Shown: positions 15,478-16,135 of the stretch, one piece after another
Layout of the letters: each line of letters starts with the position of its first letter
How positions within the stretch are numbered: the stretch's first letter is position 1
Source: Escherichia phage phiYIO1-1
Direction: 5' to 3' (one strand)
Sequence record: PP079210
Length of the DNA stretch: 40,520 nucleotides
The notes under the pieces: model-generated
The model's input: the letters and a program-made list of their open reading frames with translations, nothing else
What the model was told of the DNA's origin: nothing
The model's database searches: none
Program-made: the position numbers and the translations under genes

Positions 15478-15683
15478 GTGAATACTTACGGGTCCTAGCG
15501 GCCCTTAAGTCCTGCCCGAAGACCTTCCAGTCCAACTATGTGCGCAACAACGCTGCACTTGTGGCTGAGGCTGCGAGTCGTGGACATCTAAGCTGCCTGT
15601 CTATGGATGGGCGTAACAACGGTGCATGGGAGATTACCGCTGAAGGCACCAAGTTCCTGAACCAACACGGAGGCTGTCTATGA
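15474..15683 (+). CDS. Gene 5.7 protein
   Basis: 69 aa; LKSCPKTFQSNYVRNNAALVAEAASRGHLSCLS...GAWEITAEGTKFL matches T7 gp5.7 as recalled. Confidence 0.8.
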   Translation: MSEYLRVLAALKSCPKTFQSNYVRNNAALVAEAASRGHLSCLSMDGRNNGAWEITAEGTKFLNQHGGCL

Positions 15684-16135
15684 AGATACCTGAAAGTCTG
15701 AAAGAGCTGGTCCTTGACATAGGTGAGTGTGAGTGCGAGAAGGAGCACCGCAAGTACGCTGAGTTCTACGCATCTTGGTCATACACCTTGACAGAGAAGG
15801 ACGTTGAGTCATATACCGAGTCTCCCGCTGAGGCCTATGAGTGGCGTCAGTTCATCGGGCTGACCATCGTAGCCAGTGGTATGTGGAATGACAGCTACGG
15901 TTCAGAGGTAAATGACTGGGGGGTATATCGCCAGGTTGAGAAGGAGACTGAGATGTCTTCAAACTTCTGGAACCTGATGTCCCACCTCAACTCAGATGAC
16001 AACGACATGGCACATGAGTTCGCCAACAAATGGCTGAAGCCTGAGGTGACTCTGGAACGTATTGAGGAGCCTAAAGTTCCCTTGATGCCATATGCAGTCG
16101 CTATGGCTACAGGAGGTCTGGACGATGGGTGCTGA
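15680..16135 (+). CDS. Acidic hypothetical protein at the gene 5.9 position
   Basis: 151 aa; about 30 Asp/Glu against about 13 Lys/Arg by hand count; sits where T7 has the 52-aa RecBCD inhibitor gp5.9 but is three times longer and not recognisably similar. Confidence 0.55.
   Translation: MKIPESLKELVLDIGECECEKEHRKYAEFYASWSYTLTEKDVESYTESPAEAYEWRQFIGLTIVASGMWNDSYGSEVNDWGVYRQVEKETEMSSNFWNLMSHLNSDDNDMAHEFANKWLKPEVTLERIEEPKVPLMPYAVAMATGGLDDGC

Follow-up and report, generated by a model that had tools for sequence, protein, structure and literature searches.

A strongly acidic phrog_4382 protein in the gene 5.7/gene 6 interval of Escherichia phage phiYIO1-1 as a candidate counter-defence protein

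In phage T7, the interval between gene 5.7 and gene 6 holds gene 5.9, the product of which is a RecBCD inhibitor, a DNA mimic that binds the RecB arm and is built from an N-terminal beta-strand and a long helix that form a parallel coiled-coil dimer (eLife 2022, PMC9836394). In Escherichia phage phiYIO1-1 (sequence record PP079210), the same interval holds an open reading frame (ORF) for a strongly acidic protein of 151 amino acids (aa), which raises the question of what kind of protein has taken this place and what it might do for the phage. The stretch analysed, referred to here as the window, is the whole 40,520 nucleotides (nt) of the record. It represents an essentially complete Kayfunavirus genome (K1F-like, Studiervirinae), and over 8 kb it shares about 96% identity with relatives that include vB_EcoP_F, LNA3 and phiHAO1-1. 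An earlier sequence-only reading had placed the ORF at the gene 5.9 position and had given it a length of 151 aa and, by hand count, a net charge of about -17. The position is upheld by the flanking genes, which are a gp5.7 homologue and the gene 6 exonuclease, and the ORF translation gives 151 aa with a computed net charge of exactly -17. The reading tentatively favoured here is that the gene is an accessory host-takeover or counter-defence cassette, the product of which may serve as a stoichiometric acidic blocker of a host DNA-handling protein. The gene and its start signal are as follows.

15680-16135, plus strand: ORF of 151 aa and stop codon, with an ATG start; the product is a member of phrog_4382 with no function assigned, net charge -17, isoelectric point (pI) 4.40
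15669-15673, plus strand: Shine-Dalgarno sequence GGAGG as read from the sequence, 6 nt 5' of the ATG

The ATG at 15680 overlaps the stop codon TGA of gp5.7 (15681-15683) in the form ATGA, an arrangement which suggests that translation of the ORF is coupled to that of gp5.7. At the other end, the final 11 nt of the ORF overlap the probable start of gene 6 (GGAGG at 16112-16116, ATG at 16125). Homologues of the protein are encoded in 167 phage records (tblastn), and the ratio of non-synonymous to synonymous substitution rates (dN/dS) is 0.19 over the whole gene in six Kayfunavirus copies; therefore, this is a genuine gene. It is under purifying selection, yet dispensable in nature. In the copy of phage ZG49, a GTG start replaces the ATG (GTGA overlap with the gp5.7 stop), and the public record carries the annotation 'fusion protein'.

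The protein contains nine Asp, 21 Glu, nine Lys and four Arg residues, so that Asp and Glu (D/E) make up 19.9% of the chain. Negative charge is found along the whole length, with -9 in residues 1-88, -5 in residues 89-119 and -3 in residues 120-151, which together with the pI bears out the acidity described in the earlier reading. Among about 50 genes of the window, the 151-aa protein ranks second in acidity per residue, after an Ocr-like gp0.3 and directly ahead of the scaffolding protein. The gp0.3 protein (808-1152, plus strand; 114 aa, net charge -27; phrog_2568, E 2.8e-54) is the most acidic protein of the genome; thus, the phage already has one classical DNA mimic.

By profile, the 151-aa protein belongs to phrog_4382 (E 6.6e-46), and residues 1-132 align with positions 6-129 of the 130 in the profile, that is, over its full length. 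This is an uncharacterised, phage-only family labelled 'unknown function', and no publication on its function or structure was found. Its members occur in Kayfunavirus, Przondovirus (Klebsiella) and Jarilovirus, in Felix-O1-like phages (Suspvirus, Mooglevirus and Bas63, where it is g71) and in Proteus and Providencia phages. In tblastn searches, homologues with 80-99% identity were found in Kayfunaviruses of Escherichia, Shigella, Salmonella, Enterobacter and Citrobacter, while those of Klebsiella Przondovirus phages were about 41% and those of Felix-O1-like myoviruses (87-90 kb) about 30% identical. An exhaustive HMMER scan of 1.84 billion representatives returned just 25 clusters, all of 43-141 aa, to which iterated searches added 112-aa forms on contigs of 85-95 kb. 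Neither the word-index nor the exhaustive HMMER searches revealed a fusion of phrog_4382 proteins to other domains; all were standalone proteins of 43-151 aa, and homologues of 84-151 aa lie on contigs of phage size. In some members of the family (P0029, P0033 and P0111) the protein is truncated or has an internal deletion.

Acidity is the one global property kept across this family. All 141 collected members are acidic (pI 5.02 or lower, mean net charge -14 to -15), although the branches are only 20-30% identical to each other, and ten alignment positions are Asp or Glu in at least 80% of members. Gly67 is invariant, and G15, H23, R24, K25, F29, W69, D71 and G74 are conserved in at least 90%. 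Searches of Pfam, NCBIfam, PADLOC and PDB with the 151-aa protein by sequence and profile gave no significant match, and no Pfam family matched among 137 relatives. The best library matches (SLT_L, E 0.28; ANT(4'), E 0.024; PDC-M02B, E 0.0084) were far below the cut-offs and were set aside. Neither sequence nor fold indicated homology to an enzyme, a structural protein or a defence protein; a match to a structural or metabolic protein, which the sequence-only reading had named as the result that would speak against it, was likewise absent by sequence, profile and fold.

Like T7 gp5.9 and its family, PF25708, the 151-aa protein is small, non-essential and acidic, and it lies in the same 5.7/6 slot and in the same expression class. 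Its length is three times that of T7 gp5.9, however, and it has no similarity to the gp5.9 core (hhalign probability below 1%). Against PF25708 (gathering threshold 24.5 bits) it gave no match at E<=1, nor did any of 137 family members match at E<=0.05. No T7 gp5.9 homologue or PF25708-type ORF was found anywhere in the window (best tblastn E 0.24; E>5 with the family hidden Markov model in six frames). The architecture also differs, in that gp5.9 proteins have about 50-70 aa arranged as a strand and a coiled-coil dimer, whereas AlphaFold2 predicts a four-stranded alpha/beta fold with a helix-loop-helix for the 151-aa chain. The protein is thus a phrog_4382 member outside PF25708. Within PF25708 itself, the gp5.9 of the T3 reference genome (993-1151) is of the T7 type with one residue different. 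The commoner form carries ACGVDNWDGY and is found in Kvp1, Yep-phi and many Teetrevirus and Klebsiella phages (158 records); it is called 'RecBCD inhibitor' by homology only.

The AlphaFold2 model was built from a 137-sequence alignment (mean predicted local distance difference test score, pLDDT, 80.4; predicted template modelling score 0.61), and an earlier model had the same topology. It comprises a helix at residues 5-14, strands at 16-19 and 28-36, helices at 39-45 and 49-56, a long hairpin at 61-70/74-88, helices at 91-102 and 109-118, a strand at 122-127 and a disordered tail from about residue 131. Three parts can be delimited on the gene.

15680-15943, plus strand: N-terminal alpha/beta domain (N-domain), residues 1-88, predicted as a helix, a beta-hairpin, two helices and a long beta-hairpin, with pLDDT of about 87-92 over most of it
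15944-16036, plus strand: helix-loop-helix 'SHLN' module, residues 89-119, FWNLMSHLNSDDNDMAHEFANKW, homologous to the N-terminal extension of phrog_6163
16037-16132, plus strand: C-terminal strand (residues 122-127) and predicted disordered tail (131-151), with pLDDT below 50 for residues 134-148

The N-domain is the sole part common to all branches of the family. Its motifs are G15, EKEHRKY (21-26), F29 and GMWxDSxGxE (67-76), and in the model EKEHRKY and GMWxDSxG sit in its two hairpin turns. No PDB entry, known DNA mimics included, matched the model in fold. In the six Kayfunavirus copies, dN/dS is 0.044 for the SHLN module, 0.205 for the N-domain and 0.34 for the tail; the SHLN module is therefore the most constrained part of the gene. 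The last 10 or so residues, MATGGLDDGC, are encoded at 16103-16132 by the ribosome-binding and start region of gene 6. An unrelated occupant of the same slot in another phage (locus L009) has the same kind of ending, SMAKGGLDDGC; it is the ribosome-binding site and start of gene 6 that dictate how the tail ends.

The same constrained module is where a connection to the gp5.9 family was found. Residues 90-119 (LMSHLNSDDNDMAHEF) have their homologue in an N-terminal extension that only some gp5.9-family proteins carry. In hhalign, the family aligned with five proteins carrying this module (S-module proteins) over residues 90-119 with 97.4% probability and E 1.3e-11. Positions 3-28 of phrog_6163, a sub-branch of PF25708, matched residues 92-117 (E 0.0076), and LMSHLNxEDNxxAxEF, the N-terminal motif of phrog_6163, is found at residues 99-114; with the Klebsiella homologue and one other homologue, the phrog_6163 scores were 4.7e-5 and 5e-4. 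When the S-module proteins were searched against the window by tblastn, the only match was at 15941-16063 (P0127, E 1.9e-7). P0127 was also considered as an intact S-module-only protein, and was set aside as its contig is too short to judge completeness.

A sibling Kayfunavirus (IMG/VR 2974571109), the gp5.7 of which is 99% identical, illustrates the relationship. Its slot protein has 66 aa, MSLLKRFDDLMSHLNGEDNSLAEEFREAL...FLDALRAAGVDNWEGY...EDDE. The first 30 or so residues contain the LMSHLNxEDNxxAxEF motif of the 151-aa protein, and residues 21-66 match PF25708 at 55.8 bits, as compared with 27.8 bits for T7 gp5.9 and 62.8 bits for gp5.9 of the Kvp1/Yep-phi type (Kvp1-type range 53-72). The likeness is confined to the module. 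The match of the 151-aa protein to phrog_6163 stops at profile position 28, the C-terminal gp5.9-like domain FLxxLxACGVDNWDGY is absent, and no similarity to phrog_6163 proteins was found past residue 119 or so. Thus, the claim that the protein is unrelated to gp5.9 holds for the gp5.9 core, and gives way at residues 90-119, which share ancestry with the N-terminal module of some PF25708 proteins.

Recent recombination was rejected as the origin of the common module; DNA identity within it is only about 65-70%, and the sharing is therefore old. The 130-aa Felix-O1-like branch is colinear with residues 5-122 (hhalign 99.6%, E 1.3e-24), helical hairpin included, although the motif has diverged, and this colinearity indicates that the architecture of N-domain and hairpin is ancestral to the family. 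Judged from these alignments, the gp5.9-family proteins with an SHLN module probably acquired it from a phrog_4382-type gene. It is also conceivable, if doubtful, that the SHLN hairpin is a portable targeting or docking module, traded within one hypervariable slot between the coiled-coil scaffold of gp5.9 and the phrog_4382 N-domain, which would be a new inhibitor fold aimed at a host defence or DNA-processing complex other than those known for T7. In that case, one host-binding element would be common to two inhibitor architectures that are otherwise unrelated.

How variable that slot is was seen in a survey anchored on gp5.7, in which gp6 was located in each of 81 loci (80 from IMG/VR and the window). 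The genes on either side of the slot in the window, and the contents of the slot in the survey, were as follows.

15474-15683, plus strand: gp5.7 homologue of 69 aa on the left flank (phrog_1334), 77% identical to T7 gp5.7
16125-16994, plus strand: gene 6 5'-3' exonuclease on the right flank (phrog_107), preceded by GGAGG at 16112-16116
Empty slot: 24 of 81 loci
Neutral family of 66-111 aa: 18-21 loci
Family of 54-58 aa: 11 loci
phrog_4382 family, to which the 151-aa protein belongs: 10 loci
Acidic 'gp5.8' family: eight loci
gp5.9-family proteins (PF25708): six loci
Small zinc ribbon: a few loci

The 5.7/6 interval ranges from 3 nt to 584 nt across the 81 loci and, where it is not empty, is filled from at least seven alternative small-protein families, including the neutral phrog_2251 and phrog_12303. 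The content varies even among phages with gp5.7 97-100% identical (78-100% over the survey), and in the type phage K1F the slot is empty. In Escherichia virus LS2, genes 5.7 and 6 are separated by 182 nt of non-coding sequence (1168-1349); within it lies a 96-nt piece of the gene corresponding to residues 67-98 at 78% identity, which is a decay remnant of the cassette. The 5.7/6 interval (15684-16124 in the window) is thus a hypervariable accessory cassette site. Accessory regions of phages, as a class, are reported to be enriched in anti-defence genes (bioRxiv 10.1101/2023.04.06.535777). The three acidic families (phrog_4382, 'gp5.8' and gp5.9/PF25708) were never found together, and each was found beside neutral occupants; as about 2.3 co-occurrences would be expected by chance, this mutual exclusion is suggestive only.

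The 'gp5.8' proteins (phrog_18166; for example, gp5.8 of Erwinia phage L1) are alternative occupants of the same slot, are present in 106 phage records and are likewise uncharacterised, with 94-121 aa and a net charge of -9 to -14. Their motif SGDWTDSHKSE resembles SGMWNDSYGSE of the 151-aa protein, from which they differ by a Cys-rich N-terminus. Homology to the N-domain was not supported, at an hhalign probability of 6%. The label 'ribonucleotide reductase' that phrog_2294 gives to these acidic 94-121-aa proteins, found only in T7-like phages, looks erroneous; the same annotation is carried by at least one record, that of Klebsiella phage vB_Kpl_K58PH129C2.

The favoured reading, a counter-defence or host-takeover cassette, would work as follows. 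The gene would belong, in its expression, to the class II genes of DNA metabolism. The protein, small, folded, strongly acidic and free of any catalytic signature, would bind and block a host DNA-handling protein; its negative surface could provide affinity for the DNA-binding site of the target, and the conserved loops of the N-domain together with the SHLN helix-loop-helix could provide specificity. Since the gene stands in the place of gp5.9 and has a module in common with the gp5.9 family, the leading candidate target would be RecBCD or else another nuclease of DNA-end processing or defence; RecBCD specifically, although the most obvious choice, is unlikely. In composition (19.9% D/E in a small protein) the protein has the high density of acidic residues seen in DNA mimics. 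It is like Ocr, ArdA, Gam, Arn and Ugi in being a small, acidic phage protein of non-enzymatic character that is encoded in an accessory region, with ten conserved D/E positions. Protein-protein inhibition, DNA mimicry and the identity of the target are inferred. The variable slot, the conserved acidity, the module of the gp5.9 family and the setting of the Bas63 homologue all favour an accessory role in host takeover or anti-defence, and the earlier suggestion of a candidate anti-defence protein is thus partly upheld.

Several observations weigh against this reading, and against RecBCD as the target above all. Neutral proteins and empty slots occur at the same position, so that position alone implies no anti-RecBCD function. 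In structure, the protein resembles none of the known mimics. Generic charge mimicry is not what the invariant residues H23, R24, K25, F29, G67, W69, D71 and G74 suggest; they speak for a specific interface or the core of a fold. In the myovirus branch of the family the SHLN motif is absent, and this branch is found together with active host recombination. The Bas63 evidence, too, speaks weakly against the N-domain having an anti-RecBCD role, whereas the setting of the Bas63 homologue favours the accessory reading. In that phage (MZ501086) the homologue, bas63_0071 (g71), has 131 aa and a net charge of -17. The PhageMaP study found the region of about 46-66 kb of Bas63 to be uniformly non-essential on four laboratory hosts (PMC11482910). 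The same non-essential segment holds validated counter-defence genes, namely g77 against retron Ec67, g84/g85 against QatABCD, and g79/g80 against Sir2-HerA, Ec86 and hhe (PMC11482910). The g71 gene falls within this counter-defence-rich segment, and is not discussed in the text of the study (PMC11482910).

The surroundings of the Felix-O1-like homologues also bear on a different role, in nucleotide supply. In Suspvirus, Mooglevirus and Felixounavirus (SUSP2, Mijalis and Bas63) nrdD and nrdG flank the homologue, the stop codon of which abuts the nrdG start in Mijalis, and in a 94-kb metagenomic phage the ribonucleotide reductase genes lie 3.5 kb downstream; the other metagenomic contexts consist of runs of small unassigned ORFs. 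If the N-domain bound or regulated an enzyme or metabolite of deoxynucleoside triphosphate (dNTP) provision, or neutralised a host defence that depletes dNTPs, the position of family members directly upstream of dNTP-pool enzymes would be accounted for, as would the coupling to the gene 6 exonuclease in T7-like phages, and the conserved H-R-K-Y and W/D/S motifs could make a phosphate or base pocket. Coupling to gene 6 is a property of the slot, however, and is seen for all occupants, unrelated ones included, while many siblings with the same gene 6 lack the gene. The nrdD-nrdG interval of Bas63, with four unrelated small ORFs, is itself an accessory slot. Moreover, the genome already encodes a gp1.2 dGTPase inhibitor, and fold searches of the PDB gave no match to a nucleotide-binding fold. 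A part in nucleotide supply is accordingly rather improbable. As side observations, the four ORFs of the Bas63 interval (9571-10560 of the locus analysed) encode two membrane-like proteins, the acidic g71 and a basic 99-aa protein; the interval is variable among Felix-O1-like phages, with SUSP2 and Mijalis carrying the homologue alone.

In SUSP2 and Mijalis, genes for phosphoribosyl pyrophosphate synthetase and NAMPT are found a few kb downstream of the homologue. This proximity to NAD+-reconstitution genes, which counter NAD-depleting defences, would suit a sponge for a small immune signal of the Tad1/Tad2/Acb2 kind, in which N-domains would oligomerise and so sequester a second messenger derived from a nucleotide. 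Such a conjecture would also fit a small standalone phage protein from an accessory region with a few invariant basic and aromatic residues on two adjacent loops. The PDB searches found no sequence or fold similarity to solved sponge proteins, and strong conserved acidity is no known requirement of sponges, which makes this a remote prospect. About equally remote is a role within the phage itself, as a modulator or chaperone of a basic replication or recombination protein (gp6, gp2.5, gp5 or gp3). The gene is co-transcribed and, by its arrangement, translationally coupled with replication and recombination genes, its acidic surface would fit basic DNA-binding partners, and the tails of homologues end in DDGF or DDDFE. 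Such ends recall T7 gp2.5 and gp4, whose acidic tails terminate in Phe and dock on the polymerase. The tail, however, is set by the gene 6 start region, close relatives with near-identical replication genes lack the gene or have unrelated proteins in its place, and the LS2 remnant indicates that its loss is tolerated; moreover, family members are present in myoviruses, the replication apparatus of which is different. Finally, empty slots and decay remnants show that the gene is dispensable in nature, as a functionless filler ORF or a selfish cassette of no benefit to the phage would be. This explanation is very improbable in view of the dN/dS of 0.19 overall and 0.044 in the SHLN module, the invariant residues kept across podovirus and myovirus lineages at 20-30% identity, and the confidently folded domain in the AlphaFold2 model.

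If the 151-aa protein does inhibit RecBCD, another host nuclease or a defence system, it would represent a structurally new class of inhibitor, and gp5.9-type inhibitors would be built from exchangeable modules. The 5.7/6 interval would then be a natural library of counter-defence cassettes, in which near-isogenic phages carry one of three acidic families, one of several neutral families or, as a control, an empty slot. There is a practical side as well, since phages of Kayfunavirus and Przondovirus are applied against E. coli K1 and Klebsiella and their host range is influenced by the anti-defence genes of accessory regions. If there is no such activity, the protein is one of many uncharacterised acidic phage ORFs. 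New here are the hypervariable 5.7/6 slot, the homology of the SHLN module to a subset of the gp5.9 family and the location of the Felix-O1-like homologues between nrdD and nrdG; should the inferred role prove correct, the greatest interest would lie in the modular connection of two inhibitor scaffolds. For experiment, the 151-aa protein is a sound and clearly bounded candidate, though not a surprising one.

Avoidance of Chi goes with RecBCD inhibitors in lambdoid phages (PMC3784561), so that an excess of Chi could have spoken against inhibition, and Chi octamers (GCTGGTGG) were therefore counted in the window. Seven are present, at 6638, 8461, 20601, 22669, 26874, 29816 and 36874 (four on the plus and three on the minus strand), whereas shuffling of dinucleotides predicts about 1.4 and shuffling of synonymous codons about 3 (P 0.003-0.006). 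Chi was enriched 1.9-4-fold in all ten T7-like genomes compared, whatever the slot contained, with seven octamers in T7 (gp5.9) and eight in K1F (empty slot). Because all ten are enriched regardless of the slot, the count is uninformative here as a test of RecBCD inhibition and was rejected for that use. Minus-strand Chi sites numbered two to four in seven Kayfunaviruses, whereas three phages that carry gp5.9-family genes had 0, 1 and 0; this difference is confounded with lineage.

The remaining genes upstream of the slot are arranged as follows.

12849-15032: DNA polymerase, by gene order the first gene upstream of the small acidic ORF
15014-15190, plus strand: small acidic ORF directly 3' of the DNA polymerase, net charge -6 (phrog_20928), with no function assigned
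15190-15477, plus strand: gp5.5-like H-NS inhibitor homologue of 95 aa (phrog_1452, E 1.3e-26)

For gene 6, the ATG at 16125 is the probable start; the mechanical ORF opens at 16092, and the start equivalent to 16125 is annotated in related genomes. The listed GTG start of the phrog_20928 ORF overlaps the DNA polymerase gene, and its true start is likely the ATG at 15032. Further upstream, an HNH endonuclease ORF (phrog_1872/59; 12424-12858, plus strand) overlaps the first 10 nt of the DNA polymerase gene. The polymerase gene of K1F is itself interrupted by an HNH gene; thus, homing endonucleases are found at different sites around gene 5.

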